Part shown: positions 30,700-46,296 of the stretch, piece by piece
Numbering within the stretch: position 1 is the first letter of the stretch
Layout of the letters: every line of letters starts with the position of its first letter
Source of the DNA: a virus
IMG/VR virus record: IMGVR_UViG_3300021091_000014
Coordinates: 92,638 to 156,637 of that record
Length of the DNA stretch: 64,000 bases
Direction: 5' to 3' (one strand)
Translations under genes and position numbers: made by a program
The notes under the pieces: model-generated
Databases searched by the model: none
What the model was told of the DNA's origin: nothing
What the model saw: the letters and a program-made list of their open reading frames with translations, nothing else

Positions 30700-31185
30700 G
30701 TGAATATTTTCTTTCTTAGTAATAAACCTAATGATTGTGCTCGTCAACACTGCGACAAACATGTCGTAAAGATGATACTTGAGACAGCCCAGCTGCTATC
30801 AAATGCCCATCATATGCTAGACGGTGATCAAGTTATTAAACCAATCTATAAACTAACACATAAAAATCACCCATCAGCAATATGGACACGTTCAAGTATT
30901 GTGCATTATGAGTGGCTCTGGCTACTGCTTGGTGAACTATGTAAAGAGTATACACATCGTTATGGTAAAGTACATAAAGCAGAACGCGACGGACTTATTG
31001 AAATACTTAAGACACCCCCTAAAAATATCCCAAAAGGTGTCTTAATGTCCGAACCTCCTCCTGCCATGCCCGATGAGTATAAAGTATCTAACGTAGTAGA
31101 GTCGTATAGAAATTACTATAGAGGTGCAAAACGTTCATTTGCACGTTGGACCAATAGAGAAATTCCTGAATGGTTTAATGGATGA
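30700..31185 (+). CDS. Pyrimidine-dimer DNA glycosylase (DenV/endonuclease V-like family)
   Basis: MNIFxL...HCDKHVVKMILExAQLL, THxNHPSxIW, EYTHRYGKxH, YRxYY. Confidence 0.75.
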   Translation: MNIFFLSNKPNDCARQHCDKHVVKMILETAQLLSNAHHMLDGDQVIKPIYKLTHKNHPSAIWTRSSIVHYEWLWLLLGELCKEYTHRYGKVHKAERDGLIEILKTPPKNIPKGVLMSEPPPAMPDEYKVSNVVESYRNYYRGAKRSFARWTNREIPEWFNG

Positions 31186-32897
31186 TTATATTTGAAAAAG
31201 TAAGATGGAAAAATTTTCTTTCTACCGGTAACGCGTTTACAGAAATAGCATTAACAAAAAATAAGTCTACTCTTATTATTGGTGAGAATGGTGCAGGTAA
31301 AAGTACCATTCTCGATGCTCTTTCTTTTGGCTTATATGGTAAGCCTTTTAGAAAGATTAATAAACCTCAACTACTCAATACTATTAATCAAAAAAGTCTT
31401 GAGGTAGAGATTGAGTTTAGAATTGGTAAACGTCAATTCTTGGTAAAGCGTGGAATGAAGCCCTCGCTATTTGAAATATATCAAGACGGCAAACTTCTTA
31501 ACCAAGATGCCGAGTCAAAAGAATATCAAGAGATGTTTGAGAGAAATATTCTCAAACTAAATCATAAGTCATTTAACCAGATTGTAGTACTCGGTAGCGC
31601 ATCGTTCGTACCCTTCATGCAGTTACCAGCAGCACATAGAAGAGAGGTAATCGAAGATCTCTTAGATATTCAGATCTTCTCTACAATGAATCTTCTGCTA
31701 AGGGATAAAGTACAGAAAAATAAAAACGATATTACTGATATAGATTATAATATGCGGTTAGTTGCCGAGAAGATTGAAATGCATAAAAAGCATTTACAGG
31801 CAATGAAGCAAAGTAATGAAGAAGTTATTGAGCAAAAGAAAAACAAAATTATTGAGTTAGAAACAAGTATTGCAGACGTTAAGACTAATATCACGAGACT
31901 TAATAATCAGCTTGAAAAAGCAACAAGTAGTATTTCTGATCAAGAAAAAGTTAAGCTAAAATTTGACAATATTGTTGATCTTAAAACAAAGCTTGACATA
32001 AAGCTTGACAAGCTACAAAAGGAAATAGAATTCTTTAGAGATCACGACGACTGCCCGGTATGTAGACAAGGCATTGATCATGTACATAAGAAAGAGATTG
32101 TCTCTAATGATAACGATCAGATACTCGAAGTACAGAATGCAATTCAGAAACTGAATGAGGACATATCTTGGTATACTCATCGTATAAAAGAAATCAGTTC
32201 AGTTAATGATAAGATTACTCTCTTGAACAGAGACATATCAAACGATAACGTTCAAATTACTACTCTACTCTCATTCATTACAGGCCTTAATGATGAGATT
32301 GATAAACTTAAAAAAGATAAAACTGTAACAGAAGATAACTCAGAAGAACTTAAGCAACTAAAAGGTGAATTAAAAGAGCATGTAACTAATAAAGAAGAAT
32401 TATTACAAAATAAATTAGTTCTTGATGTTGCGTCTATGCTGTTAAAAGATAGCGGTATTAAGACCAAGATTATTAAGCAGTATGTGCCTATAATGAACAA
32501 GCTAATTAACAAATACCTGGCTGCAATGGACTTTTTTGTTAATTTTGAACTTAACGAAAATTTTGAAGAAAAAATAAAGTCGAGATTTAGGGATGAGTTT
32601 TCATATGAGTCGTTCTCTGAAGGTGAAAAAATGCGTATCGATTTGGCACTCCTGTTTACTTGGCGTGCTATTGCTAAGCTTCGTAACTCTGCTAGCACAA
32701 ATTTACTTATTATGGACGAAGTATTCGACAGCTCACTCGATCATAACGGCACAGATGAATTCCTAAAGATACTCAGCACTTTGACTACTGATACAAATGT
32801 GTTTATTATAAGTCATAAAGGTGATACATTATTTGATAAATTTGAAAATATTATTAAATTTGAAAAACATAAAAACTTCTCACGGGTAACCGCATGA
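31182..32897 (+). CDS. gp46: Recombination ATPase subunit gp46 (Rad50/SbcC-like)
   Basis: GENGAGKST, CPVC zinc hook, FSEGEKMRIDLA signature, MDEVFDSSLD. Confidence 0.96.
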   Translation: MIIFEKVRWKNFLSTGNAFTEIALTKNKSTLIIGENGAGKSTILDALSFGLYGKPFRKINKPQLLNTINQKSLEVEIEFRIGKRQFLVKRGMKPSLFEIYQDGKLLNQDAESKEYQEMFERNILKLNHKSFNQIVVLGSASFVPFMQLPAAHRREVIEDLLDIQIFSTMNLLLRDKVQKNKNDITDIDYNMRLVAEKIEMHKKHLQAMKQSNEEVIEQKKNKIIELETSIADVKTNITRLNNQLEKATSSISDQEKVKLKFDNIVDLKTKLDIKLDKLQKEIEFFRDHDDCPVCRQGIDHVHKKEIVSNDNDQILEVQNAIQKLNEDISWYTHRIKEISSVNDKITLLNRDISNDNVQITTLLSFITGLNDEIDKLKKDKTVTEDNSEELKQLKGELKEHVTNKEELLQNKLVLDVASMLLKDSGIKTKIIKQYVPIMNKLINKYLAAMDFFVNFELNENFEEKIKSRFRDEFSYESFSEGEKMRIDLALLFTWRAIAKLRNSASTNLLIMDEVFDSSLDHNGTDEFLKILSTLTTDTNVFIISHKGDTLFDKFENIIKFEKHKNFSRVTA

Positions 32898-33412
32898 TAC
32901 ACAAACTAATTGAATGTGATAATCCAATACTACTCACTCCAACTGATCATTTCGATTTTAATAATCCTCCCATTAATCCTGTTGAACTAGTAAATGATTT
33001 AATAGAGACATTAGCTCACTATAAAGGAATGGGCCTTGCCTCACCACAGATCGGTCTTTCTTATCGCGTGTTCGTTTTATGGTCTCAAGAAACGCTTGCA
33101 TGCTTTAATCCTAAAATTGTTGATCAAACTACTGAAGAAGTTTTATTAGAGGAAGGATGTCTATCTTTTCCTAATTTGTTTATACCTATTAAGAGACCAA
33201 AATCTATTAAGGTAAGATTTGCTGATCCATTTGGTAACATAAGGACAGAAAAATTTACTGGTATGACAGCAAGATGTTTCATGCATGAGCTTGATCACCT
33301 AGATGGGATAGACTATACTAGGAGAGCTACTCAATTTCATCTTGAACGCGCACAAAGAAAACAAAAAATTATGAGTCGTCAAATGCGACGTAATGAGAAG
33401 GTCGCTATATAA
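32894..33412 (+). CDS. def: Peptide deformylase
   Basis: GMGLASPQ, EGCLS, HELDH motifs. Confidence 0.93.
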   Translation: MIHKLIECDNPILLTPTDHFDFNNPPINPVELVNDLIETLAHYKGMGLASPQIGLSYRVFVLWSQETLACFNPKIVDQTTEEVLLEEGCLSFPNLFIPIKRPKSIKVRFADPFGNIRTEKFTGMTARCFMHELDHLDGIDYTRRATQFHLERAQRKQKIMSRQMRRNEKVAI

Positions 33413-33449
33413 TAATACGTGCCCTTCCACGTAAACTAGGAGTAATAAC

Positions 33450-34298
33450 TTGTCAAAACTAAAAGTATCAGAATTATTTTATTCTATTCAAGGTGAGGGG
33501 CGCTATATGGGCGTTCCTTCAGTCTTTTTAAGAACGTTTGGTTGTAACTTTACTTGCTCGGGCTTTGGAATGCCTAAAGGAGTACAAAGTGATGAACGTC
33601 TTAACATCAATCCAAAAAAATATGAAAAGTATAATGAACTTCCCCTTGTTCATACTGGGTGTGATAGTTATGCTTCCTGGGATCCTCGCTTTAAGCACCT
33701 TAGTCCTGTTATTGAATGTTCCCAACTGGCTAAAGACATCGTTAACATCTTACCGGAAAAGAAGTGGCAGGACGAGCACTTAGTTATTACCGGCGGTGAG
33801 CCTTTATTAGGGTGGCAACGCTCGTACCCTGATTTACTTGAGCAAGAATGTATGATGGGATTAGAAGAACTAACCTTTGAAACAAATGGTACGCAGGAGC
33901 TAACAAAAGAGTTTGCTGATTATTTGTTTGTAGAGTTTACTAGACACGGTCGAGGATACGACAAACTTACTTTTTCTGTATCACCTAAACTTTCTATTTC
34001 TGGGGAAAAAAGAGATGAAGCAATTCGTCCAGAGATTGTTGCCCAGTACAGTTCAATCGGATACACCTACGTTAAGTTTGTTGTTGCTACAAAAGAAGAT
34101 GTAAAAGAGGCAAGACAGGCTGTGAACGATTACAGAGCAGCAGGATTTGCAGGACCGGTATATATTATGCCTTGTGGTGGTACTGATGAACTTTACTATC
34201 TTAATCACAGACAGGTAGCAGAGTTAGCAATGAAAGAAGGGTTGAGATATTCTGATCGGCTACAAATACCTCTATTTAAAAATGCCTGGGGTACATAA
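33450..34298 (+). CDS. queE: 7-carboxy-7-deazaguanine synthase (radical SAM)
   Basis: ELFYSIQGEG, FLRTFGCNxxC...CDS, ITGGEPL, ETNGT, SVSPKL; cluster context; TTG start after a GGAG RBS. Confidence 0.9.
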   Translation: MSKLKVSELFYSIQGEGRYMGVPSVFLRTFGCNFTCSGFGMPKGVQSDERLNINPKKYEKYNELPLVHTGCDSYASWDPRFKHLSPVIECSQLAKDIVNILPEKKWQDEHLVITGGEPLLGWQRSYPDLLEQECMMGLEELTFETNGTQELTKEFADYLFVEFTRHGRGYDKLTFSVSPKLSISGEKRDEAIRPEIVAQYSSIGYTYVKFVVATKEDVKEARQAVNDYRAAGFAGPVYIMPCGGTDELYYLNHRQVAELAMKEGLRYSDRLQIPLFKNAWGT

Positions 34299-34741
34299 TG
34301 GAACATTTAGTTTATAATTTTAAAAACTACATGGATGATTTTGTAGATTTAGTTTACAACATAGAAAAATCTAACATAAAATATGACTTAGTGGTTGGTA
34401 TTCAAAGAGGTGGTTTGATTGCAGCAGTTCACATATCAAATGCACTTAATATACCATTTGCTAATTTAAATTGGTCACACAGCGAAGGTAAGGTACGTGA
34501 CAGTTCTAACCCTCATCTTAAGACATCACTTGAAAGAGGTAGAAGAGTGTTAGTTGTAGATGATATTTGTGATACAGGAATAACTTTGTGTGAAGTTCAA
34601 CTAGCTTACCCGGGTATAGACACTGCTGTATTAGTCTATAATGAAGAGAATGAAAAACAATTTATACCGACATATTATGGATGGAAGTTAAAAAGATCTG
34701 AAATTCCAGAATGGTTAGATTTTTGGTGGGAGAAGAAATAG
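34298..34741 (+). CDS. Type I purine phosphoribosyltransferase (Gpt-like)
   Basis: VGIQRGG, PRPP loop VLVVDDICDTGIT, WLDFWWE C-terminus. Confidence 0.85.
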   Translation: MEHLVYNFKNYMDDFVDLVYNIEKSNIKYDLVVGIQRGGLIAAVHISNALNIPFANLNWSHSEGKVRDSSNPHLKTSLERGRRVLVVDDICDTGITLCEVQLAYPGIDTAVLVYNEENEKQFIPTYYGWKLKRSEIPEWLDFWWEKK

Positions 34742-35248
34742 ATGTCAAATTTAAAACCTATTACTTATAAGTTTGTTTCTACAAAAGAGTATGTTGATCA
34801 ATTTCCGTGCGCATATCGTCAATGGAAAGCGGACAGTCACTGTAACTTAATTCACGGTTATTCTTTTTCAATGAGGTTTTGGTTCGGTAGTAATGACTTA
34901 GATATTCGCAACTGGGTTGCTGATTATGGAGGATTTAAAGAACTTAAAGAAATATTGCAAGATCAATTTGATCACACTCTGCTTGTCGCAGAAGATGATC
35001 CGGAATTAGAAGTATTTAAAATGTTACAGGAGAAAAAGCTTGCCAAGCTGACCATACTTCCTCGACTTGGTTGTGAAGGACTAGCTGACATGCTTTATAA
35101 GTTTGTTAATGGTGTTTATGTCCCTGACTACTGGGGGCCAGGTGAAGCAAAACGTTTATGGTGTTTTAGAGTTGAGGTTAGAGAGACTCAATCAAATATG
35201 GCCTTCAGAGAAGGGCACCGTGAATGGAATGAAAATTTATTGGACTAA
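34742..35248 (+). CDS. queD: 6-carboxytetrahydropterin synthase/PTPS family
   Basis: HCNLIHGY, DYGGFKxLK, FDHTLLV, ExLA, VRET; between queE and folE. Confidence 0.82.
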   Translation: MSNLKPITYKFVSTKEYVDQFPCAYRQWKADSHCNLIHGYSFSMRFWFGSNDLDIRNWVADYGGFKELKEILQDQFDHTLLVAEDDPELEVFKMLQEKKLAKLTILPRLGCEGLADMLYKFVNGVYVPDYWGPGEAKRLWCFRVEVRETQSNMAFREGHREWNENLLD

Positions 35249-35251
35249 ATT

Positions 35252-35944
35252 ATGGAAAAAAATCTTGCACAAGTATTAAGAGAGCAAATGAAAGCTGATG
35301 GCAAGCGTTTTTGGGCCGGTGATAATATTTCTGAATATGTCGATCCCATCACAAAAGAAATTTTAATTGATGAAGCAGCCAAAGCATTTGAAAAAGTATT
35401 AGATACACTGCTTATTGACCGAGAAACGGATCCTAACTCTAAAGGTACAGCAAAACGTCTAGCTAAGATGTACTATAATGAAATTATGGCCGGGCGATAT
35501 GATCCATCTCCTGATTGTACTGCATTTCCTAACGATAGTGAAGAGAGGTATGAGGGCATGCTTGTGGTAAGGTCAGAACTTAAATCACTTTGTTCTCACC
35601 ATCATCAGCCTGTAAGAGGCGTTGCTTACATCGGTATTATTCCTGGCAGTAAGGTTATCGGGCTATCAAAGTATACTCGTATTGCTCAATGGCATGCTCG
35701 TAGAGGTACTTTACAAGAAGAACTTTGTAATGAGATTGCTAAGTCAATTAAACAAGCAACTGAGTCACCTGATGTGGCGGTTTATATTGCTGCCAAGCAC
35801 GGGTGTTGCGAAAATAGAGGTATTATGGCTCAAAGTTCACTAACTCAAACTACTGTACTGCACGGTCAGTTTCACGAAGCTTCAGTTAAGAAAGAGTTTT
35901 TTGATAACATAGCATTACAGCAATCATATGGGGAAAAGCTGTAG
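35252..35944 (+). CDS. folE: GTP cyclohydrolase I
   Basis: SLCSHH, IGLSKxxRI, LQEEL, HxCxxxRG. Confidence 0.95.
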   Translation: MEKNLAQVLREQMKADGKRFWAGDNISEYVDPITKEILIDEAAKAFEKVLDTLLIDRETDPNSKGTAKRLAKMYYNEIMAGRYDPSPDCTAFPNDSEERYEGMLVVRSELKSLCSHHHQPVRGVAYIGIIPGSKVIGLSKYTRIAQWHARRGTLQEELCNEIAKSIKQATESPDVAVYIAAKHGCCENRGIMAQSSLTQTTVLHGQFHEASVKKEFFDNIALQQSYGEKL

Positions 35945-35970
35945 ATTTAATATTCCGTAAATGTTATAAT
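35942..35970 (+). promoter_or_regulatory. Sigma70-like promoter inside the deazaguanine island
   Basis: TAGATT-N17-TATAAT. Confidence 0.5.
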
Positions 35971-35983
35971 ATAGGTTCTAATT

Positions 35984-36256
35984 ATGAAAGGAACCTCTAT
36001 GACTCAGACTAATTCTCGTCCTCGTGTAAAAGAAGACGGTATTGGACAACAAGCTATGACTCAACTATTTGCACTTTTTCCAGTTGCAACAATAGAGCTG
36101 TTTAGAGATCAATGCATCGGTCTTATTGAGCAATCTAACGGTAAAGAAAGTACAAAGTTACGTTTTAAGGATGAACTTAATCGTTTACAAAGTAAGACAG
36201 TTATGATGCAGAAAGTTACTAACTACTTCCTTGCCGGAGAAGGCAAAGGTGTATGA
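35984..36256 (+). CDS. Hypothetical protein
   Basis: ORF after a promoter; the true start may be the second Met, after AAAGGA. Confidence 0.6.
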   Translation: MKGTSMTQTNSRPRVKEDGIGQQAMTQLFALFPVATIELFRDQCIGLIEQSNGKESTKLRFKDELNRLQSKTVMMQKVTNYFLAGEGKGV

Positions 36257-36543
36257 ATGAGATATTTTTAAATACTTGGGATTGGATAAAAAGTGACTGG
36301 AAAAGTAACAATATTCGTTTCACAGTTGAAGTTATTGCCTGGGCTGTTAGTATCGGTTGTTCTATCACCATGGCACTTACAGTCCCTAACCCACCTTTAC
36401 TTATTTTATATCCTATTTGGATTGCTGGTTGCGCTATGTATGGGTGGGCTGCTTATACTCGTAGATCCTTTGGCATGCTTGCTAATTATGCACTGTTAAC
36501 GAGCATAGATACTATTGGATTAATTAGGATGCTTGCAGTTTAG
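36253..36543 (+). CDS. Small integral membrane protein
   Basis: Three hydrophobic segments in 96 aa. Confidence 0.65.
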   Translation: MNEIFLNTWDWIKSDWKSNNIRFTVEVIAWAVSIGCSITMALTVPNPPLLILYPIWIAGCAMYGWAAYTRRSFGMLANYALLTSIDTIGLIRMLAV

Positions 36544-36590
36544 TAGTAATTGTAGATGTAATTGATGAACTTACTCCTTAGGAGAATTGT

Positions 36591-36977
36591 ATGTTAGGTA
36601 AAATGTATTTGGCTCGTTTCACCAATAAAGAAACAAAAGAAATAGATTTTTATAAATTTGGACACACCTCTTCGTGGGATGCTGCTGACAGATTTAAGTA
36701 TGAACCTGAACAATATAGTAAGTGGGAAATAAAAATTATGAAAACTATCGCTGGCCCACTAGATGAAATGAAGGGTATTGAAGAGGCATTTAAAGCATTC
36801 TATCCAAAAAATTTATGGGTAGAGGAAAAGATTAGCGGGGTTACAGAAATTGTAACCCTCTCTAGGGAACAGGTAAACGAAATAATTAACAAAATGGAAG
36901 TTCTTGGTACAAAATACTACCAAAGACGAGAGCGTGACAGACAAAAAGCACAACAGGAATATAATCTCAATGGCTAA
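36591..36977 (+). CDS. Putative GIY-YIG/T5orf172-like nuclease-domain protein
   Basis: GKMYL...FYKFGHT...RF...E motif spacing; AGGAG RBS. Confidence 0.45.
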   Translation: MLGKMYLARFTNKETKEIDFYKFGHTSSWDAADRFKYEPEQYSKWEIKIMKTIAGPLDEMKGIEEAFKAFYPKNLWVEEKISGVTEIVTLSREQVNEIINKMEVLGTKYYQRRERDRQKAQQEYNLNG

Positions 36978-37776
36978 AATCGCACACGAAGCACCCATTT
37001 CAATCTTTAATGATGTACAAGCGCGCACAGACTATGATTATGCGCTTGTACATCTTTTTGAAGAAAGTGAACAATACTTTCAACTTTTTAAACAGGCACT
37101 TAATAATAAAAGAGAGGTTATTTTAGATAATTCTGTCTTTGAATTAGGTACCGCATTTGATTCAGAAAAATATGCTGAATGGATTGTTAGACTTAAACCA
37201 ACTTATTATATTATTCCAGACGTATTAAATGATGCAAATGGAACAATAAAAAATTATGATAACTGGGTAAAAAATTATAAAGATAGCGTGCCAGGCAAAA
37301 TGATTGCAGTCGCGCAAGGCAAAACTTATAATGAGTTTTTAGAATGCTATAACCATCTTACCAGCGGTGTTGATAAAATTGCTATTTCATTTGATAGCGA
37401 GTTTTATGATACATGGATTAGTCGCTTTAGTACAAAGCAACCTACAAAGTATCATGCCTGGGCTCTAGCAAGACAACTACTATTTGTTAAAATGGTAGAA
37501 ATGAAGCACATAAATGAGAGCATTCCCCATCATCTACTCGGTTGTGGAGTGCCCCAGGAATTTAGTGATTATAGAAATTACAAATTCATAGATTCTATTG
37601 ATACTTCTAATCCAGTGGTTGCTGGCTTAAAGGGACTGCGCTACAATAACGAACGAGGACTTGACGATAAGCCTAGCGAAAAACTTCATACAATGATTAA
37701 TTCAGAAGTAAGTATTGAGCAACTAGCAAACATTACTTATAATATTACCTGGTTCAGAAAGATCGTAAATGGCTAA
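36970..37776 (+). CDS. Divergent TGT-fold protein (DpdA-like deazaguanine transglycosylase)
   Basis: Likely start MAKIAHEAP; ILDNSxFE, IPDV, VAQG, HHLLG, SIDTS follow the TGT/DpdA barrel motifs; que-gene context. Confidence 0.65.
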   Translation: MAKIAHEAPISIFNDVQARTDYDYALVHLFEESEQYFQLFKQALNNKREVILDNSVFELGTAFDSEKYAEWIVRLKPTYYIIPDVLNDANGTIKNYDNWVKNYKDSVPGKMIAVAQGKTYNEFLECYNHLTSGVDKIAISFDSEFYDTWISRFSTKQPTKYHAWALARQLLFVKMVEMKHINESIPHHLLGCGVPQEFSDYRNYKFIDSIDTSNPVVAGLKGLRYNNERGLDDKPSEKLHTMINSEVSIEQLANITYNITWFRKIVNG

Positions 37777-38332
37777 AGGTGTATGGCTTGCACTCTTTAG
37801 TCAATCAGGGAGTGAAATTAATTTTCTTGCAAAAAACTTAAAAGTACAGCCCCTCATACTGACTAATAATATGAGATCGAGTTGGGTCACCGGTCTTAAA
37901 GTATGGCAACAAAAACCTCATAACGAATTAATGGAGTGGCTGCGAAAAGCTTATCCAGAAAACGAATATAGAAAAAATGTTCTTATTACTCTTCACGGGT
38001 ATATGAGAATTATCCCTCAAGATATTTGCGAACGCTATAACATCTATAACGGACATCCAGCCGCTATAGATTCATACCCTGAATTAAAAGGAAAAGATCC
38101 ACAGATTAGGACGTGGAATGAAAAAGAAAAATATTCTATAATTGGTAGTGTTGTACACAAGGTTGTACCAGAAGTTGATGAAGGAGAAATAGTTAGCTCT
38201 TCTTACTACACAAATAGAGTGGAATCTGAAATTGAAATGTTTGCAAAGCTTAGAGAATCATCACAAGAGTCTTGGCTTTGGTTCTTGAGGAAAAAATTAT
38301 GCGAATTGGAATTGCTGGAGCACAGTCAGTAG
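37769..38332 (+). CDS. Formyltransferase (PurN/Fmt N-terminal family), candidate preQ1 formyltransferase
   Basis: ALFSQSGS, LHGYMRII, NGHP, LKG, GSVVHKV...VDEGEI. Confidence 0.8.
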   Translation: MAKGVWLALFSQSGSEINFLAKNLKVQPLILTNNMRSSWVTGLKVWQQKPHNELMEWLRKAYPENEYRKNVLITLHGYMRIIPQDICERYNIYNGHPAAIDSYPELKGKDPQIRTWNEKEKYSIIGSVVHKVVPEVDEGEIVSSSYYTNRVESEIEMFAKLRESSQESWLWFLRKKLCELELLEHSQ

Positions 38333-38880
38333 GTAAAACTACTCTACTGAATGCATTGCGTTCGGAGAAGATGTTTAGAGACATGAGAGTGTGTAATGAA
38401 GTTACACGTAGGGTGATGAGTTACGGTTTGCCGATTAATGAACAGGGCAATGACGTTACTCAGAAACTAATTATGCAAGAACATATTGTTAACGTATTCA
38501 TGTATAATAATTTCATTACAGATCGTACTGCGCTTGATGGTGTGGTGTATACAAAATACTTGCATGAGATCGGTAAAGTGTCCGATGAGACTATGACATT
38601 TGCTACTGACGTATTTCTAAAACTTTACCCAAAGTATGACATAATGTTTTATATTGAACCTGAGTTTGAAATAAAAAATGATGGCATTAGAAGTGTAGAC
38701 TTAACATTTAGAAATAGAATTGTTCAAATATTTAATGAATATTTTGAGACTTATAAACTATCATCAGTACGTTTAAATGGGTCAGTGAGGGAAAGAGTAG
38801 AACAGGCTATTGAAGCATATAAAGAAAAAGAGAGACTAATAACATGGAAGGAGGAGTTGGATAGTGACTACGGACATTAA
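38299..38880 (+). CDS. P-loop nucleoside/nucleotide kinase-like protein
   Basis: GAQSVGKTT Walker A, ITDRTALD (dNK/TMK-like DR motif), DGIR lid. Confidence 0.75.
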   Translation: MRIGIAGAQSVGKTTLLNALRSEKMFRDMRVCNEVTRRVMSYGLPINEQGNDVTQKLIMQEHIVNVFMYNNFITDRTALDGVVYTKYLHEIGKVSDETMTFATDVFLKLYPKYDIMFYIEPEFEIKNDGIRSVDLTFRNRIVQIFNEYFETYKLSSVRLNGSVRERVEQAIEAYKEKERLITWKEELDSDYGH

Positions 38881-39796
38881 TCAAAAGCAATTAAATGAAT
38901 TAGTATCAGTACACCTAGGTAAGGCAGGTGATGGTACAGTAGTTAAGCCTTACGTTACTCCTGATAATGTAGATCCTTCTCTTCTTGTATCTGTACCAAG
39001 ACATCTTAATAGGACAGGCTACGGTATTGATGATAATAACTTACCATTCGTAGGTATGGACGCATGGAATGGTTATGAATTTTCTACCCTGCTTAAAAAT
39101 GGCTTTCCCGTTTCCGGGTGGATTAAGTTTACATGCCCATCCGACACACCTAACATTGTAGAATCAAAATCGGTAAAGTTGTATCTAAACTCTTACAATA
39201 TGGCTCGTCTAATTGAATCAACTGACGATATGTGGATTATTGAAGATAATATACAACGTGATCTTTCTAAAGCTGTAGGAGGGCATGCCGAAGTATTCAT
39301 TCGTTGGGGAGACATTGATACAGTAAAACCTATCATCGGTGACTTTATTTCTCTTGAGCATTACTGTAACATTCAAAAGATGACATTTGACAACTACAAT
39401 GAGTCTGCAGACATTCTCAAAGTAGTTCCATCTATTGGCAGATATGAAAGATGGCGTTCATATTCACTGCGTTCAAATTGCCGAGTAACTAATCAGCCAG
39501 ACTGGGGTGATGTATATGTTCATATTAAAGGTGATACGTCGGTTACTCCGGAATCGTTACTCCAGTATATTATATCAATGCGTAAAGAGAATCACTTTCA
39601 CGAAGAGATTTGTGAATGCATTTATAAACGTCTATGGGACTTATTACAACCCGAAGAACTATTCGTGGCATGCCTTTACACTCGGCGAGGAGGTATTGAT
39701 ATTAACCCAGTGCGAGCTTCGGATAGTAGAGTATTATGGAAGTACGGTATGATTGCCGATGTTCTACATTTTTGTACAAAGACTGCGAGACAATAA
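38864..39796 (+). CDS. queF: NADPH-dependent preQ0 reductase, two-domain type
   Basis: DxWNxYEFS, VESKSxKLYLNS, SNCRVTNQPDWG, FHEExCE, YTRRGGIDINPxR. Confidence 0.93.
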   Translation: MTTDINQKQLNELVSVHLGKAGDGTVVKPYVTPDNVDPSLLVSVPRHLNRTGYGIDDNNLPFVGMDAWNGYEFSTLLKNGFPVSGWIKFTCPSDTPNIVESKSVKLYLNSYNMARLIESTDDMWIIEDNIQRDLSKAVGGHAEVFIRWGDIDTVKPIIGDFISLEHYCNIQKMTFDNYNESADILKVVPSIGRYERWRSYSLRSNCRVTNQPDWGDVYVHIKGDTSVTPESLLQYIISMRKENHFHEEICECIYKRLWDLLQPEELFVACLYTRRGGIDINPVRASDSRVLWKYGMIADVLHFCTKTARQ

Positions 39797-40239
39797 TGAT
39801 TACAAAATATCCTTTTCCTACTGACGGCCCACCAAACAAAAGCCCAGACAATAACGTTAATCAAATTTGTGACGAATTTGTTAAACGTTCCCAACACGGC
39901 TTTACTAAGTACGGGGTAACTACAGAGCGCACAGATCTAGAATTTGATCAATGGCTACAGCATTTAAAAGAAGAAATGATGGATGCAGTGGTTTACCTTC
40001 ATCGAATTCAAAAAGAGCGCGCGCTTGACAGAATGACTCAAGTTAATGAGCAGTTTAATTTGTATAATGATACGAATATGAGTACAGTTACGGTGGGGGG
40101 AGATACTATAATTAGTACAGTAGACTATGGAGCTGGTATGCCGGCTGCTATGGAAATTGTTGATTTAAGTATGTTAGGCTCCGGCGATACAATTACTATA
40201 TCATTGGATAATAAAAATGAATCTAAAAAAGGCTCTTGA
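39796..40239 (+). CDS. MazG-like all-alpha (d)NTP pyrophosphohydrolase candidate
   Basis: RSxxGxxKYGxT...WLxHLxEExxDAxxY (EExxD metal motif); ATG overlaps the queF stop. Confidence 0.55.
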   Translation: MITKYPFPTDGPPNKSPDNNVNQICDEFVKRSQHGFTKYGVTTERTDLEFDQWLQHLKEEMMDAVVYLHRIQKERALDRMTQVNEQFNLYNDTNMSTVTVGGDTIISTVDYGAGMPAAMEIVDLSMLGSGDTITISLDNKNESKKGS

Positions 40240-40969
40240 TTTTTTACCTAGTACAGATAAAAATGTTTTAGTAGTTTTGTCTGGGGGAATGGACTCTTCC
40301 ATTCTCACTATGATATTGACAGCAAAGTATGGAAGTAAAAAAGTAAAAGCTCTTTCGTATGATTATGGTCAAAAGCAAAAGAGAGAATTAACTAAGGCTA
40401 AAGAGCTCTGTTCTATATTAGAAGTAGATCATAAAGTATTAGATTTAAATATACTAGGAGAGATAGCTAGACCTATTTCTGCAAACATTGGCGGCAGTGA
40501 TGTTGTAATGCCTACAATAAAAGATGTACTTGGCGACCCTCAACCTAAAACGTATGTTCCTTTTCGCAATTTAATACTATTATCACTTACTCTTGCCCAA
40601 GCGGAAGCTAGCATCGCAAGTCATGTATATACAGGATTGCAAGTACATGATGAATATGGTTATTGGGATACTACCCAGAAGTTTGTTGATAGTATAAATG
40701 TTGTTGCTGAGCAGAATCGCTCACATAAAGTCAAAGTGCTAGCACCATTTAGTCATTTGTCTAAATTTGATGAGTTGGAAATTTGTAAAGAGCTTAATTT
40801 AACAGAACTCCTTGCATATACTCTCACCTGTTACAATCCAGATAGTATTGGCAACTCTTGCGGTAAATGTCCTGCGTGTTCTGAACGCATTGCTAATTTT
40901 GCAAAAGCTGGTATGGTTGACCCAATACCCTATTCTATTAATATACCATGGGATAAAATTATAAAATGA
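40217..40969 (+). CDS. queC: 7-cyano-7-deazaguanine synthase
   Basis: LSGGMDS, YGQKQxxE, TYVPFRN, Zn motif TCY...CGKCPACxER. Confidence 0.95.
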   Translation: MNLKKALDFLPSTDKNVLVVLSGGMDSSILTMILTAKYGSKKVKALSYDYGQKQKRELTKAKELCSILEVDHKVLDLNILGEIARPISANIGGSDVVMPTIKDVLGDPQPKTYVPFRNLILLSLTLAQAEASIASHVYTGLQVHDEYGYWDTTQKFVDSINVVAEQNRSHKVKVLAPFSHLSKFDELEICKELNLTELLAYTLTCYNPDSIGNSCGKCPACSERIANFAKAGMVDPIPYSINIPWDKIIK

Positions 40970-41478
40970 TTACAACTATTTACTTAGATATGGACGGAGT
41001 CATTTGTGACTTTGATGCCCTCTACAGTGAAACTTATGGACTAAACTGCAGAGACGATCCTAACGATGACCATTGGTTTGAGTTTGTGAATAACGATGGA
41101 TTCTATAACCTATCAACCACAAAAAACGCTGATAAACTTTTAGATAAGCTATTTTCTCTTGATGTTAATGTGGAGATTTTATCTTGTGTTGGAACTAAAA
41201 AGAATAAAAATCAAGTCCGTAGTCAAAAGATTAGATGGCTACATGCTCACGGTCTAGGACATTTACTAACTAATTTTACTTCTACCAAGCTAAACAAATC
41301 AAGGTACGCAAGTAATTCGAGCTTGCTTATAGATGATTCTGAAACATGCATTAATCCATTCAAAGAAAAAAATGGATATGGGATTTTACATATGAACGTA
41401 AAAGATACTATTAAACAAATTGATTACTTGACTGAGAAAGGTTTATTATGTGCGCTATCGTTGGTTCAAGAAACGTAG
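40966..41478 (+). CDS. HAD-family 5'(3')-deoxyribonucleotidase-like protein
   Basis: YLDMDGVICDF, ILS, KxxWL, LLIDD. Confidence 0.8.
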   Translation: MITTIYLDMDGVICDFDALYSETYGLNCRDDPNDDHWFEFVNNDGFYNLSTTKNADKLLDKLFSLDVNVEILSCVGTKKNKNQVRSQKIRWLHAHGLGHLLTNFTSTKLNKSRYASNSSLLIDDSETCINPFKEKNGYGILHMNVKDTIKQIDYLTEKGLLCALSLVQET

Positions 41479-42107
41479 AAAAATTAATAGAGCTAGTCAG
41501 GTTAAATTCCTATAGAGGCTTTCATTCATACTCCCTATCCGTATACAATTATTATAGTGGAATCTTAACTATTCATAAAAAAAGACTGGGCACTATTAAT
41601 TTAGATGGTTTTAGTTTAGCCCCTAATGAATATGCTATTGTTCATATTCAAGCTCCTACAACAGATGCTAGAACAGAGGATTTCATTCACCCTGCGGTTC
41701 TTAACATTGACTCACAGTCAGACTCTAATCCAGATTTAGCACTGTGGCACAATGGGATAATCAAGGCTGAGATAGTAAAAAACAACGTAGACAAATACCT
41801 CTCATCCTGGGATACAATGCAAATTTTGAGAGCACTAACTCAAGCTAATTCCTTTAAAGTATTGAATGAGTTCGATGGGACTTTTAGCTGCTTATTGTAT
41901 AACAGAGCTGATCTAAGTCTTAAATTGTTTAGAAATGAAATTTCCCCTATGTTCATTGATGATAATTTAAACATATCATCAACAAAGTTTGAAGGAAGTA
42001 GAGAGACGGTAGCAGATAATGTTATTAAGTTGAACTTTAAGAATAATTCTGTTATACTTGAGGATGAATTTAAAACTGTAGAGAACCCATATTATTTTGG
42101 AGATTAA
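41448..42107 (+). CDS. Stand-alone class II (Ntn) glutamine amidotransferase domain
   Basis: N-terminal MCAIVG (Cys2 nucleophile), YRG, HxQAPT, HP, WHNGII, WDT. Confidence 0.75.
   Translation: MCAIVGSRNVEKLIELVRLNSYRGFHSYSLSVYNYYSGILTIHKKRLGTINLDGFSLAPNEYAIVHIQAPTTDARTEDFIHPAVLNIDSQSDSNPDLALWHNGIIKAEIVKNNVDKYLSSWDTMQILRALTQANSFKVLNEFDGTFSCLLYNRADLSLKLFRNEISPMFIDDNLNISSTKFEGSRETVADNVIKLNFKNNSVILEDEFKTVENPYYFGD
42030..42058 (+). promoter_or_regulatory. Sigma70-like promoter inside the GATase gene
   Basis: TTGAAC-N17-TATACT with the same AGTTGA -35 as other early promoters. Confidence 0.4.
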
Positions 42108-42608
42108 ATGAAGCATATTTTAGGACCTAATTCACGAAGTACTCTATCAGCTGTCGAGGAAGGCGATAGTCAACCTAACGCCGTCGACCTTAGATTAGGT
42201 AAAGTATTTCGTATTCAACCAACAACTTTTGAGGTATCTAATGAACACAAACACCACAGAGGAACTTCAGAAGTTGTACCTAATGATAACGGATACTTTC
42301 ACCTGGAGCCTGGTCACTACGAAGTTGTCATGGAAAACATCATCAATGTTGGTGAAGGTGAAGCTGGTTGGGTTATTACTCGTAGTACTCTTAATCGCAA
42401 CGGCCTATTCCTTACTTCGGGTCTTTATGACTCTGGTTACCATGGCGTTATGGCCGGTGTACTTCACGTCACTGTGGGTCCGGCAAAAATTAAGAAAGGT
42501 ACTCGCATTGGACAGTACTTAAGTTTTAATGCTGAATCAATAGGTAAGTATAAAGGGTCGTATGGTATTGGTAAAGAACACGATAAAAAGTACGGAGTGC
42601 AAAAATGA
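42108..42608 (+). CDS. Trimeric dUTPase/dCTP deaminase family protein
   Basis: QPNAVDLRL, RSTLNRNG, GLYDSGYHG, GTRIGQ. Confidence 0.8.
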   Translation: MKHILGPNSRSTLSAVEEGDSQPNAVDLRLGKVFRIQPTTFEVSNEHKHHRGTSEVVPNDNGYFHLEPGHYEVVMENIINVGEGEAGWVITRSTLNRNGLFLTSGLYDSGYHGVMAGVLHVTVGPAKIKKGTRIGQYLSFNAESIGKYKGSYGIGKEHDKKYGVQK

Positions 42609-43456
42609 AAATTGAAATTGCTATTGAAGAACTTAGAAAGAAAAAGCTGTTTGTTGCCACTCCCATGTATGGCGGGCAGTGTGCAGGGATGTATACAAAG
42701 TCGATTGCTGATTTGTCTGCATTATGTGCAAAATACGGTATCCCTCTCCAACTATATTACCTGTTTAACGAATCATTAATTACTCGTGCACGTAACTACT
42801 GTGTAGATGAGTTCTTGAGATCTGAGGCAACCCATCTTATGTTTATCGATAGTGATATTGGTTTCAATCCTCAAGATATTTTAGCCTTACTAGCTCTTCA
42901 GACCGATGAGTCAGAATATGATGTTATCGCAGGCCCATATCCTAAAAAGTGTATCTCTTGGGAGAAGATCAAGCAAGCTGTTGATAAGGGAGTAGCTGAC
43001 GAAGACCCAGGCCAGTTAGAGCGTTACGTTGGTGACTATGTCTTTAATCCTAAGACCACACAGCGCGAGATTCCTCTTGGTGAGCCTGTCGAGGTACTTG
43101 AACTCGGTACTGGCTTTATGATGATTCGACGTAAGACATTTGAGATGTATGAAAAGGCTTATCCTGAGTTGCATTATAAGCCTGACCATGTACGTACTGA
43201 GCACTTTGACGGTAGTCGTGAAATTATGGCCTACTTTGACTGTATTATTGATCCAGATTCTAAACGCTATCTTTCTGAAGATTATAACTTCTGTTATCAT
43301 GTATCTAAGATGGGCGGTAAGAACTGGTTATGTCCTTGGATGAAACTGTCTCACGTTGGTAGTTATATCTTCGGTGGAAGCTTGATTGATTTAGCTACTA
43401 TCGGTGCAAGTGCTACCGCTGACGTGTCTAAAATTAAAAAAAGTCAAAAGAAATGA
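42605..43456 (+). CDS. GT-A-fold glycosyltransferase-like protein
   Basis: VATPMYGG, ESLITRARN, FIDSD (DxD), GTGFMMI, SEDYxFC, HVG. Confidence 0.65.
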   Translation: MKIEIAIEELRKKKLFVATPMYGGQCAGMYTKSIADLSALCAKYGIPLQLYYLFNESLITRARNYCVDEFLRSEATHLMFIDSDIGFNPQDILALLALQTDESEYDVIAGPYPKKCISWEKIKQAVDKGVADEDPGQLERYVGDYVFNPKTTQREIPLGEPVEVLELGTGFMMIRRKTFEMYEKAYPELHYKPDHVRTEHFDGSREIMAYFDCIIDPDSKRYLSEDYNFCYHVSKMGGKNWLCPWMKLSHVGSYIFGGSLIDLATIGASATADVSKIKKSQKK

Positions 43457-44112
43457 AATTTGAAGCAAGAACACTCCAGATACTAAAGAACTTTTCGGTT
43501 ATTAATCCTTCCCTACAGTTTAAGGAAGGAAGTATTCTGGCAACTGTTTCACCAAATAAGACCGTAATGGCAAAGGCGTTTATAAAGGAGAATATCCCAA
43601 GCACCTTTGCTATTTACGATCTATCTAAATTTTTGGGAGTCCTATCTTTATTTGATTCTCCTGAAATTGCTTTAGAGGACAAATACCTTATCATTAAAGA
43701 TAACAATAAACAGGTTCAGTACACCTATGCTGATCCCCGTAATATTGTCTTACCAGGTGATAAGGAGATTAAGTTACCAGAGTTAGAAATTAAATTTACT
43801 CTTTCAAGCGACACACTACAAAGCGTTTTAAAAGCAATGGGTGTACTTGGTCTTCCAGAGATTGCAGTAACAGGTGAAAACGGAGTGCTAAGTGTACAGG
43901 CCGTTAACGTTAAGAACCCTTCAAGTGACAATTTTAGTATTGATTTGGGACAAACACCCTTGACGTTTAAGATGATTTTTTTAGCAGAAAATATTAAAAT
44001 TATTCAAGATGATTATGACGTAAGCATTTCATCCAAGGGCATTGCCCATTTTAAAGGTAAAGATATTGAGTATTGGGTAGCTACTGAAAGCAGTTCAACA
44101 TTTAAAGGTTAA
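43453..44112 (+). CDS. gp45: Sliding clamp gp45
   Basis: TLxILKNFSxIN, FAIYDLxxFL, YWVATE. Confidence 0.93.
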   Translation: MKFEARTLQILKNFSVINPSLQFKEGSILATVSPNKTVMAKAFIKENIPSTFAIYDLSKFLGVLSLFDSPEIALEDKYLIIKDNNKQVQYTYADPRNIVLPGDKEIKLPELEIKFTLSSDTLQSVLKAMGVLGLPEIAVTGENGVLSVQAVNVKNPSSDNFSIDLGQTPLTFKMIFLAENIKIIQDDYDVSISSKGIAHFKGKDIEYWVATESSSTFKG

Positions 44113-44114
44113 TA

Positions 44115-45056
44115 ATGAATTTTGATAATGTATTGTGGGTGGAAAAGTATCGTCCGCGCACAATTAGTGAAACTATTTTACCTGATCATCTTAAAAGCAC
44201 ATTTCAAGAGTTTGTAAATAAAAAGGAGGTTCCAAACCTCCTTTTGTCTGGTAGAGCCGGTACCGGTAAGACTACTGTTGCTAAAGCTATGCTAGAAGAA
44301 CTTGGCTGCGATTATATCGTGATCAATGGTAGCCTTAACGGTAACATTGACACATTGAGAAATGATATCAAGTCATTTGCCTCTTCTGTATCATTGTCCG
44401 GAGGCCGTAAATATGTTATTCTTGATGAGGCCGATTACCTCAATCCTAACTCTACTCAACCAGCATTACGTAACTTCATTGAAGAGTTTAGCGTAAACTG
44501 CGGGTTTATACTCACGTGTAATTTTAAAAATCGTATTATCGATCCTTTACATTCAAGGTGCTCAGTTGTTGAGTTTAAAATTAATAAAGACGATAAACAA
44601 AAGCTTGCACTAGCATTTTTTAACCGAGTACAAGATATTTTAGGTAATGAAAAGATATATTACGATAAAAAAGTAGTTGCTGCTGTCATAAGCAAGTTTT
44701 TCCCAGATTACAGACGCACTCTTAACGAGTTGCAAAGGTATTCAGTAACAGGTAAAATTGATACCGGCATGCTTACTGACCATAAAGAGGAAACTCTTAA
44801 AGAGGTTATGGGGTATCTAAAGCTTAAAAACTTTACCAGTGTAAGAAAATGGGTTGGTGAAAATAGTGATGTAGATTCTTCATCATTCTTTAGAAGTATC
44901 TATGATGTAGCAGCAGACTATCTGAAACCATCTAGCATTCCTCAACTAGTTTTAATTTTAGCGGACTATCAGTATAAGGCTGCTTTTGTGGCTGATCATG
45001 AAATTAATATCACAGCATGCCTTACTGAACTCATGGTTGAATGTGAGTTTAAATAG
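44115..45056 (+). CDS. gp44: Clamp loader large subunit gp44
   Basis: LWVEKYRP, GTGKTT, ILDEAD, PLHSRC, DYRRxLNELQ. Confidence 0.96.
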   Translation: MNFDNVLWVEKYRPRTISETILPDHLKSTFQEFVNKKEVPNLLLSGRAGTGKTTVAKAMLEELGCDYIVINGSLNGNIDTLRNDIKSFASSVSLSGGRKYVILDEADYLNPNSTQPALRNFIEEFSVNCGFILTCNFKNRIIDPLHSRCSVVEFKINKDDKQKLALAFFNRVQDILGNEKIYYDKKVVAAVISKFFPDYRRTLNELQRYSVTGKIDTGMLTDHKEETLKEVMGYLKLKNFTSVRKWVGENSDVDSSSFFRSIYDVAADYLKPSSIPQLVLILADYQYKAAFVADHEINITACLTELMVECEFK

Positions 45057-45057
45057 T

Positions 45058-46296
45058 ATGGAAGAAGATATTACTGACGTGTTAAAAGAGCTTGATACTA
45101 TGTTAAAACGTCCTTTTTTTAAAAGAAAATTAAAAAGAAAAATAAATAAAAAAAATTTAAGAAAGGGAGGAATGAGAAAACAGCGATGGGAACTTACTAG
45201 TGCAGTTTATAAAGATGACGAAATGTATAGAAAATGGGAAGATGGAGCTATGAAATTAGGTGCTGAAGTTGACGACCATGCGAGTTCTTTAGCTGATGAG
45301 AGAGGAGAGTACTTTCTTGCAGGTACAAGTATAAATGACCATTATATTTCCAAGTTAATAGATTATAGAACTAATTGTTTAAAAGATACTTTTTACAAAG
45401 GTGAAGACATTGTATGCTCAAAGGAAGCATGGATTAAATTTACTAGAAGTAAATCAGATAACGAGTGGCAAGTTATTGAGTTTGGTGATCAAGCAGGAAT
45501 GCTTGTCGATAAAATGCATGATAGTTTTATTGATTACTCCGTTACTTCTAATTCTGTTACAGTAAAATTATATGGTGACAGGGATTGGGTAGAAAATATT
45601 TACGACGAAATTACTAATTTATTTTTAGTAGCCAAATGTCATATTGAATGGATTTACTCCGGAGATGGAAGCTCGGTAAATGTTCCTTTACTAGGAGATA
45701 AACTTCCTATCTCAGAAATGTATCCATTTTTAAATGGTGAATCTGTTGAAGAATATTATGAGAGATATCTTCAGTCAGATGCTTCCATTCTTTTACTCAT
45801 AGGACCTCCCGGTACAGGTAAGACAACTTTTATTAGAGGGTTATTACACCACACTGGAAAAAATGCTATAGTAACTTACGACGAAGCAATCTTACAGAAA
45901 GATTATGTCTTCGCTAGATTTATTGAGGATGATACCGGCGTTATGGTTTTAGAAGATTCAGATAATTTTCTTAAATCAAGACGAGATGGCAATTCAATGA
46001 TGCATAGATTTCTTAATGTCGGTGACGGACTAATTACTGTGAAGGGTAAAAAATTAATTTTTAGTACTAACCTCCCCTCTATTAATGAAATAGATCCTGC
46101 TTTAGTTCGTCCTGGAAGATGCTTTGATATTCTATCATTCAATAACTACACTACCGAGCAAGCTCGCTCTCTTGCAAGTAAACTTAATATTACTTTTAAA
46201 GAATCAGATGATAAAAAAGATTACTCTCTTGCCGAAATTTTTCATCAGCAACGTTCATCTAAAAAATTAATTAATAGAAAATTTGGCTTTATATGA
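45058..46296 (+). CDS. AAA+ ATPase with N-terminal extension
   Basis: GPPGTGKTT, VLEDSD, STN, IDPALVRPGRCFD second region of homology; likely start MEEDI. Confidence 0.85.
   Translation: MEEDITDVLKELDTMLKRPFFKRKLKRKINKKNLRKGGMRKQRWELTSAVYKDDEMYRKWEDGAMKLGAEVDDHASSLADERGEYFLAGTSINDHYISKLIDYRTNCLKDTFYKGEDIVCSKEAWIKFTRSKSDNEWQVIEFGDQAGMLVDKMHDSFIDYSVTSNSVTVKLYGDRDWVENIYDEITNLFLVAKCHIEWIYSGDGSSVNVPLLGDKLPISEMYPFLNGESVEEYYERYLQSDASILLLIGPPGTGKTTFIRGLLHHTGKNAIVTYDEAILQKDYVFARFIEDDTGVMVLEDSDNFLKSRRDGNSMMHRFLNVGDGLITVKGKKLIFSTNLPSINEIDPALVRPGRCFDILSFNNYTTEQARSLASKLNITFKESDDKKDYSLAEIFHQQRSSKKLINRKFGFI

Follow-up and report, generated by a model that had tools for sequence, protein, structure and literature searches.

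The question raised by this locus is which 7-deazaguanine its genes provide, and to which nucleic acid the base is delivered. The locus lies in the virus record IMGVR_UViG_3300021091_000014 (156,637 bp, estimated to be 91% complete), the final 64 kb of which were analysed and are referred to here as the window. Within the window, an island of genes at 33450–42608 combines the synthesis of preQ0 and preQ1 with a DpdA3-type guanine transglycosylase and a DpdN-type formyltransferase. This island is a new member of the already known DpdA3/DpdN system for fdPreQ1 (the formylated base 7-(formylamino)methyl-7-deazaguanine), set in a different phage backbone and equipped with an extra glutaminase. Judging from its sequence, we consider it likely that guanine in the DNA of the phage itself, probably at all or nearly all G positions, is exchanged for fdPreQ1 by this system, and that the modification would act against host restriction and other DNA-targeting defences.

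In the Flavobacterium phage immuto_2-6A, 100% of the deoxyguanosine (dG) was found to be replaced by fdPreQ1, using liquid chromatography-tandem mass spectrometry against a synthetic standard, and neither dPreQ1 nor dG was detectable (PMC10516641). The window island has in common with this phage the local gene order phosphoribosyltransferase (PRTase)-FolE-DpdA3-DpdN-kinase-QueF, with orthologue identities of 50.7% for DpdA3, 45% for QueF, 42% for FolE, 38% for both the formyltransferase and QueD, 34% for the PRTase and 33% for the kinase. An initial annotation of this stretch, made from its letters alone, had proposed that the phage carries fdPreQ1 or a further derivative, referring to a phage with a divergent DpdA and a predicted formyltransferase. 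This reference was correct, the phage being immuto_2-6A as described by Cui et al. (PMC10516641), and the proposal of fdPreQ1 is supported by the orthology of DpdA3 and DpdN and by the common gene order. No extra tailoring enzyme points to a further derivative, but on account of the stand-alone glutaminase next to QueC the identity of the final base is slightly uncertain.

The two islands are not identical. The QueC gene of immuto_2-6A lies about 15 kb from its island, whereas in the window it lies inside, together with the stand-alone glutaminase, a nucleotidase and a small gene, and the immuto_2-6A QueE is too diverged to be matched by tblastn with the window QueE. In addition, a family A polymerase is encoded beside the immuto_2-6A island, whereas the window phage is T4-like with a family B polymerase. 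Two other phages, Campylobacter phage CP220 (dADG) and Cellulophaga phage phiST (dDG), carry transglycosylases of the same subfamily, to which the window protein is 39% (CP220 group) and 23% (phiST) identical, all three comparisons covering 87–92% of the length; it was on the proteins of immuto_2-6A, CP220 and phiST that the DpdA3 subfamily was founded (Cui et al. 2023, PMC10516641). CP220 and phiST differ in being without QueF and DpdN, their pathways ending at bases derived from 7-carboxy-7-deazaguanine (CDG), and complete G replacement has been reported for both (PMC10516641). Because all three DpdA3 phages that were tested had their G fully replaced (PMC10516641), a high degree of G substitution may fairly be expected, by analogy, in the window phage.

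The genes of the island, identified by profile searches with Pfam, PHROG and NCBIfam, are as follows.

33450–34298, + strand: QueE (7-carboxy-7-deazaguanine synthase), a radical S-adenosylmethionine (SAM) enzyme (phrog_2076, QueE-like, 2e-55; partial QueE NCBIfam matches)
34298–34741, + strand: small purine (xanthine/guanine-type) PRTase (PF00156, 2e-16)
34742–35248, + strand: QueD (6-carboxytetrahydropterin synthase; PF01242, 2.7e-14)
35252–35944, + strand: FolE (GTP cyclohydrolase I; PF01227, 6.5e-39)
35984–36256, 36253–36543 (hydrophobic) and 36591–36977, + strand: three small open reading frames (ORFs) without assigned function (no Pfam match)
36970–37776 (ORF 36904–37776), + strand: DpdA3-type guanine transglycosylase (identity to the immuto_2-6A DpdA; fold of tRNA-guanine transglycosylases, TGTs)
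37769–38332, + strand: DpdN-type PurN-like formyltransferase (PF00551, 29.9 bits against a cut-off of 26.1)
38299–38880, + strand: P-loop kinase of the deoxynucleoside kinase (dNK)/thymidylate kinase (TMPK)/NadR ribosylnicotinamide kinase (NadR-RNK) fold (PF13521, 2.7e-15; phrog_2107, 1.3e-27)
38864–39796, + strand: bimodular QueF (preQ0 reductase yielding preQ1; PF14819, 2.8e-29; PF14489, 7.3e-19; TIGR03138, 3.2e-68)
39796–40239, + strand: small conserved protein with a 60-residue helical core (PHROG families without known function)
40217–40969, + strand: QueC (preQ0 synthase; PF06508, 6.3e-51; TIGR00364, 165 bits against a cut-off of 150.3)
40966–41478, + strand: NT5C-like 5'(3')-deoxyribonucleotidase of the HAD type (phrog_2643, 2.4e-28; weak PF06941 match)
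41448–42107, + strand: stand-alone class II (N-terminal nucleophile, Ntn) glutamine amidotransferase (Met-Cys start, class II residues)
42108–42608, + strand: enzyme of the dUTPase/dCTP-deaminase fold (PF22769, 2.4e-14; NF002598 dUTPase, 1.9e-24; PDB 9w59 dUTPase, 4e-10)

All of the genes named in the initial annotation (folE, queD, queE, queC, queF, a TGT/DpdA-like gene and an overlapping formyltransferase gene) were recovered, the que and fol genes all on the + strand, and the overlap measures 8 nt. The TGT/DpdA-like gene had been called divergent, which holds for its sequence, as no Pfam or NCBIfam model matches it, and fails for its orientation, as it lies on the + strand like the rest. 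Six further genes within 33450–42608 had gone unmentioned, encoding the PRTase, the kinase, the small protein, the nucleotidase, the glutaminase and the dUTPase-like enzyme. The stated lack of queA and queG in the window extends to the entire record: neither QueA (PF02547) nor QueG (TIGR00276) was found in the whole 156,637 bp at their 91% completeness, and the canonical tgt family (PF01702) has no match anywhere in the record, even at E ≤ 10. The pathway is therefore not directed towards tRNA queuosine.

FolE, QueD and QueE would convert GTP into CDG, from which QueC would make preQ0, and QueF would then reduce preQ0 to preQ1. More specifically, QueC has the PP-loop motif SGGMDS and a Cys cluster at its C-terminus, while both the QueF motif and the catalytic Cys are present in QueF. 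The Cys32, Cys36 and Cys71 residues of QueE are invariant in 27/27 relatives with the spacing CX3CX34C. The usual radical SAM motif is CX3CX2C, and the third cluster ligand of QueE seems to have been displaced by a 34-residue insertion.

The DpdA-like ORF encodes 290 aa, and alignment sets its true start at the ATG at 36970, which gives a protein of 268 aa. Its kinship with the TGTs had to be established by fold search since sequence profile searches found none; in particular, a DpdA3 profile matched no TGT among PDB sequences. An AlphaFold2 model built on 122 relatives showed a mean pLDDT of 97, and the top 50 Foldseek matches to this model were all TGTs, with E values of about 1e-9 and TMq of 0.62–0.68. 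When structures were compared all against all with VIA-align, the best match for DpdA3 was the bacterial DNA preQ0 insertase DpdA (7ui4_A; Z 17.2, root-mean-square deviation 3.0 over 228 residues), followed by the archaeosine TGT (Z 16.9), the bacterial TGT (Z 16.2) and QTRT2 (Z 15.4), with generic TIM barrels at 14.8 or below. As modelled, DpdA3 is a TGT-type (beta/alpha)8 barrel.

Three aspartates, Asp53, Asp84 and Asp211, are invariant in the 122 DpdA3 relatives. The segment SIDTSNP, which contains Asp211, was placed by hhalign on MFDCVMP, the segment of the E. coli TGT nucleophile Asp264 (the equivalent residue of bacterial DpdA being Asp256), whereas Asp53 (LDNSxFE) and Asp84 (IPD) resemble TDSGGFQ and FDEC of E. 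coli TGT (Asp89 and Asp143) in order and spacing, a likeness of motif only. We propose from these alignments that Asp53, Asp84 and Asp211 are the catalytic and base-binding aspartates, in which case DpdA3 would have in common with bacterial DpdA (that of Salmonella Montevideo, 7ui4) and the TGTs not only the TIM-barrel TGT fold (Z 15–17) but also the conserved acid/base, base-recognition and nucleophilic residues.

In other respects DpdA3 departs from these enzymes, with which its identity is 11–14% and which measure about 375–413 aa against its 268 aa. A CxCx2C..H zinc site, and the 128-residue insertion Ins8 that it pins and that flanks the nucleic acid, have been stated to be conserved in the DpdA family (PMC10164549). 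The window protein contains two Cys only, and CxCxxC occurs in 0/122 relatives; moreover, a median of 57 residues follow the nucleophilic Asp in these relatives, compared with 111 in E. coli TGT. With both zinc site and Ins8 missing, DpdA3 is a stripped-down member of the TGT/DpdA superfamily. A DpdB-like ATPase partner was not seen in the island.

The DpdN start codon lies inside the DpdA3 gene, and the formyltransferase matches immuto_2-6A DpdN (YP_010114479.1) with an E value of 1e-30. The Asn-His-Asp triad of PurN corresponds to Asn94, His96 and Asp137, which are invariant in 56 DpdN relatives. Although the N-terminal formyltransferase fold (PF00551) and this triad are common to DpdN and PurN, the glycinamide ribonucleotide transformylase, similarity between the two is very weak (PDB E value of about 0.015; 33.5 bits with the NCBIfam PurN model against a cut-off of 150), and DpdN adjoins DpdA3 and QueF rather than lying in a purine operon. 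The family comprises at least 540 clusters at 90% identity, whose labels, where there are any, are generic (PurN, Fmt, formyltetrahydrofolate hydrolase); the founding paper described DpdN in three uncultured caudoviral genomes (PMC10516641).

Two natural 447-aa fusions of DpdA3 with the formyltransferase (P0043 and P0095) tie the two activities together. A predicted complex of the separate proteins scored 0.22 against a mark of 0.32, which speaks neither for nor against binding. As DpdN consists of the catalytic N-terminal domain only, a small molecule seems more likely than DNA as its substrate. Further long DpdA3 proteins with extensions were noticed, namely P0004 (586 aa), P0098 and P0103. 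P0004 was considered as a DpdA3-kinase fusion and rejected, its N-terminal half not being kinase-like. The ‘NadR’ of Bacillus phage BSTP12 was likewise rejected as such a fusion, the name being a mere label on an ordinary 263-aa DpdA3-like gene; this gene (L093:4896-5684) has a deazaguanine gene cluster on one side and the gene for DNA polymerase I, which it overlaps, on the other.

For the final steps, we propose that a formyl group, most likely donated by 10-formyl-tetrahydrofolate, is added by DpdN to the aminomethyl group, whether the base is still free or already inserted, and that DpdA3 exchanges guanine for the deazaguanine via a covalent Asp211-deoxyribosyl intermediate. Glutamine would probably be the source of the ammonia used by QueC, with the neighbouring class II glutaminase releasing it. 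This protein begins with Met-Cys, and across 28 relatives its Cys2, Arg23-Gly24 and His101-Asn102-Gly103 vary hardly or not at all; its profile matches the glutaminase domains of GlmS and PurF. It is the probable ammonia donor for QueC because the amide step of QueC needs ammonia and because an Ntn glutaminase beside QueC mirrors the arrangement in asparagine synthetase B; by this analogy, it probably lets the deazaguanine pathway draw on glutamine. Unlike in Gat-QueC fusions, the glutaminase has a gene of its own here, downstream of QueC and beyond the nucleotidase gene, and in related loci it directly follows QueC, yet again as a separate polypeptide. No homologue was found in immuto_2-6A, CP220 or phiST, and BLASTP of the glutaminase against the ‘Gat/QueC’ protein of BSTP12 revealed no similarity.

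One GTP is spent on every deazaguanine that is made, and one guanine is set free whenever DpdA3 carries out an exchange. We therefore regard the PRTase and the kinase as forming an optional loop for salvage, in which guanine would be converted to GMP and GDP, and then to GTP which feeds FolE. The best PDB matches of the PRTase are archaeal and bacterial purine (xanthine/guanine) PRTases (4z1o, 1vdm), its best NCBIfam match is xanthine PRTase, and its immuto_2-6A orthologue occupies the same position. From these similarities, guanine salvage is its probable function. The AlphaFold2 model of the kinase (pLDDT 88.7) gave about equal Foldseek matches to deoxynucleoside kinases, the NadR ribosylnicotinamide kinase domain and thymidylate kinases. 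In immuto_2-6A a homologue of the kinase gene follows DpdN, and in CP220 one immediately follows DpdA3. In CP220, moreover, gp055 (L003:7862-8893), a protein with an HD phosphohydrolase fused to a P-loop domain, is encoded directly upstream of DpdA3, the kinase of the window type being directly downstream; gp055 and this kinase are a candidate nucleotide-pool pair in the dADG phage.

The small protein encoded at 39796–40239 has a strongly conserved core, KYG.TTER.D..W..HL.EE..DA.VY, to which the window copy adds a long C-terminal tail. On account of its EE..D motif it was considered as a MazG/DUF1599-type nucleoside triphosphate pyrophosphatase, which is unsupported, as no match was obtained with Pfam (E ≤ 10), PDB profiles, DUF1599 or MazG models. 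The dUTPase-fold gene scores best as an archaeal-type dUTPase and appears to serve the pyrimidine pool in the ordinary way, its link with the island being loose. As for the three small ORFs at 35984–36977, the third (36591–36977) showed a weak endonuclease PHROG match only, and all three were found in just 9–12 of 83 related loci; the nucleotidase was likewise found in just 12/83.

Core and optional genes were distinguished by comparing related loci. A scan of IMG/VR returned at least 552 stretches with a DpdA3 relative, the best 80 of which (49–77% identity) were analysed by tblastn and hidden Markov models; when clusters at 50% identity were searched exhaustively, 1,776 of them matched DpdA3 (E ≤ 0.001). 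Among the 64 loci that could be assessed, with at least 2.5 kb downstream of DpdA3, QueF was found beside DpdA3 in 63, the formyltransferase in 61 and the kinase in 41. Where flanks were long on both sides (29 loci), FolE was present in 29, QueD in 28, QueC in 24 and the kinase in 22, compared with 13 each for the PRTase, the glutaminase and the dUTPase-like gene, and 3 for the nucleotidase. The PRTase was confined to loci with a kinase (13/13, against 0/7 without it), as was the small gene at 39796–40239 (9, against 0/7), and the glutaminase accompanied QueC in 13 of 24 fully assessable loci and never occurred without it. No kinase was found in five kinase-less contigs of 22–83 kb, all of them incomplete. 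With 23 of the 64 loci lacking the kinase, and the PRTase present only where the kinase is, both are dispensable. The minimal core thus consists of QueE, QueD, FolE, DpdA3, DpdN, QueF and QueC, to which two optional modules are added, the PRTase with the kinase, and the glutaminase with QueC.

The order gp46, peptide deformylase, island recurs in at least 23 related loci, and gp45 and gp44 are present in 29. This common placement puts the window phage in a sizeable clade of uncultured T4-like phages whose cassette occupies one fixed position, between gp46 and gp45. Only 32 records of cultured phages were found to contain DpdA3 relatives, none of them from the cyanophage or Melnitz-like group which is nearest by terminase.

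Of the alternatives to DNA insertion of fdPreQ1, the one that survives best places the exchange before replication. Contrary to the published model, DpdA3 would then be no DNA insertase but a free-nucleotide enzyme, swapping formyl-preQ1 or preQ1 for the guanine of a deoxynucleotide or deoxynucleoside such as dGMP; the kinase would re-phosphorylate the product, the family B polymerase would incorporate the modified deoxynucleoside triphosphate and the PRTase would recycle the guanine, so that PRTase, kinase and small gene would form a nucleotide-pool module. We regard this route as unlikely, though it has attractions. It would explain complete replacement as for 5-hydroxymethylcytosine in T4, and to our knowledge every complete base replacement known in phages is pre-replicative. 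A bare 268-aa barrel without zinc site or Ins8 would suit it, as would the recurrence, in three very distant lineages (window, immuto_2-6A and CP220), of a dNK/TMPK/NadR-fold kinase adjacent to DpdA3 or DpdN; such a kinase is, however, missing from 23/64 loci that retain DpdA3, DpdN and QueF, so that a dedicated kinase is not always present. The pairing of PRTase and kinase is equally compatible with guanine salvage, which fits both their strict co-occurrence and their dispensability; a kinase in 41/64 loci and a PRTase only in its company point to an optional salvage module and are no proof of a nucleotide-level route. Nucleotide hydrolases are encoded near DpdA3 elsewhere, namely the HD-plus-P-loop protein just upstream in CP220 and a MazG-like gene nearby in phiST, but no enzyme for the removal of dGTP is recognisable in the genome containing the window (an HD domain is absent, and the only MazG-like match, at 18 bits, is below the cut-off and far from the island), and the dUTPase-fold gene scores as pyrimidine-type. 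The detection of ADG nucleoside in the cytoplasm of CP220-infected cells, which is cited in PMC10516641, would agree with a pre-replicative exchange; the authors of that paper, the only experimental one, nevertheless argue for post-replicative insertion (PMC10516641). A literature search found no paper that proposes or tests a pre-replicative route for 7-deazaguanines.

Improbable in our view, too, is a different final base, either unformylated dPreQ1 or a mixture, or an archaeosine-type dG+ if the glutaminase, together with QueC, were to add ammonia to preQ0. The reading is kept in consideration because of the glutaminase and because DpdN activity is itself a prediction (PMC10516641). The glutaminase has intact catalytic residues, is tied to QueC in its distribution and is missing from the characterised immuto_2-6A, and Gat-QueC fusions are linked to G+ formation in a statement found in PMC10516641; in the window, however, the protein is separate rather than fused, and its role as ammonia donor for the two ammonia-dependent steps of QueC suffices to account for it. 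Against an unformylated product, QueF and DpdN lie in the same tightly packed co-directional cluster, are kept in 95–98% of related loci and have intact catalytic residues, and the same DpdA3/DpdN/QueF set in immuto_2-6A gave fdPreQ1 only, with no dPreQ1 (PMC10516641). That the island instead serves RNA, raising the level of preQ1 or queuosine-type modification in the tRNA of host or phage while infection proceeds, is hardly credible: the set from FolE to QueF is indeed the bacterial precursor pathway for tRNA queuosine and the transglycosylase fold is common to tRNA enzymes, but the genome is without canonical TGT, QueA and QueG, DpdA3 is without the insertions by which TGTs read the anticodon loop, queuosine synthesis does not involve a formyltransferase, and the DNA was fully modified in all three phages tested from the DpdA3 clade (PMC10516641).

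Replacement of guanine by fdPreQ1 in the phage DNA is therefore the reading that we prefer, and several points weigh against it. The support for fdPreQ1 in the window phage is that of orthology only, at 38–51% identity to immuto_2-6A, which has no equivalent of the glutaminase. DpdA3 is without the zinc site and Ins8 that TGTs and bacterial DpdA use for holding nucleic acid, so that its action on DNA is assumed, and we know of no precedent outside the DpdA3 family for a complete, sequence-independent post-replicative exchange. The modelled fold of the kinase would be compatible alike with GMP, another nucleoside monophosphate or a nucleoside as its substrate, and published attempts with DpdA3/DpdN in E. 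coli failed (PMC10516641).

The backbone in which the island is set is T4-like, as had been proposed at the outset, with a T4-type TerL, a gp6-like baseplate protein, a family B DNA polymerase, the gp45 clamp, the gp44 loader and a gp46-like Rad50 ATPase; a class I ribonucleotide reductase is also encoded. TerL is 56–58% identical to those of cyanophage P-RSM6 and Methylophilales phage Melnitz. All ORFs of at least 90 aa across 30700–46296 are on the + strand, with gaps that are short or replaced by overlaps, and a scan for promoters and terminators found sites no more numerous than in shuffled sequence. Megablast with the island DNA against 50,697 phage records gave no match.

Upstream, the island is flanked by gp46 and a peptide deformylase gene (32894–33412), and downstream by a conserved phrog_1574 gene and gp45. 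The deformylase was considered in connection with formyl chemistry and rejected as backbone, since its position between gp46 and the island in 26 related loci makes it part of a conserved T4-like flank. The phrog_1574 protein (42605–43456), encoded between the island and gp45, carries a DxD-like FIDSD motif with a faint match to Anp1 glycosyltransferases, and its identity of 57–98% among related phages exceeds the conservation of the island genes. A denV-like pyrimidine-dimer DNA glycosylase gene is located immediately upstream of gp46 (30700–31185), and large fibre genes with collagen repeats and Ig/TIG domains are found elsewhere in the genome (L088:6100-7626, L088:11073-13736 and window 12013–13734).

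The features of the island are not specific to this window. Overall, the fdPreQ1 system, known chemically from a single cultured Flavobacterium phage, appears here as a cassette carried as standard by a large clade of T4-like phages that are aquatic and uncultured. The lack of the zinc site and of the nucleic-acid-binding insertion in DpdA3 sharpens the question of its substrate, which is a matter for the whole family. DNA of the fdPreQ1 type should resist many restriction enzymes, and the modified bases may affect the sequencing and recovery of such phages.

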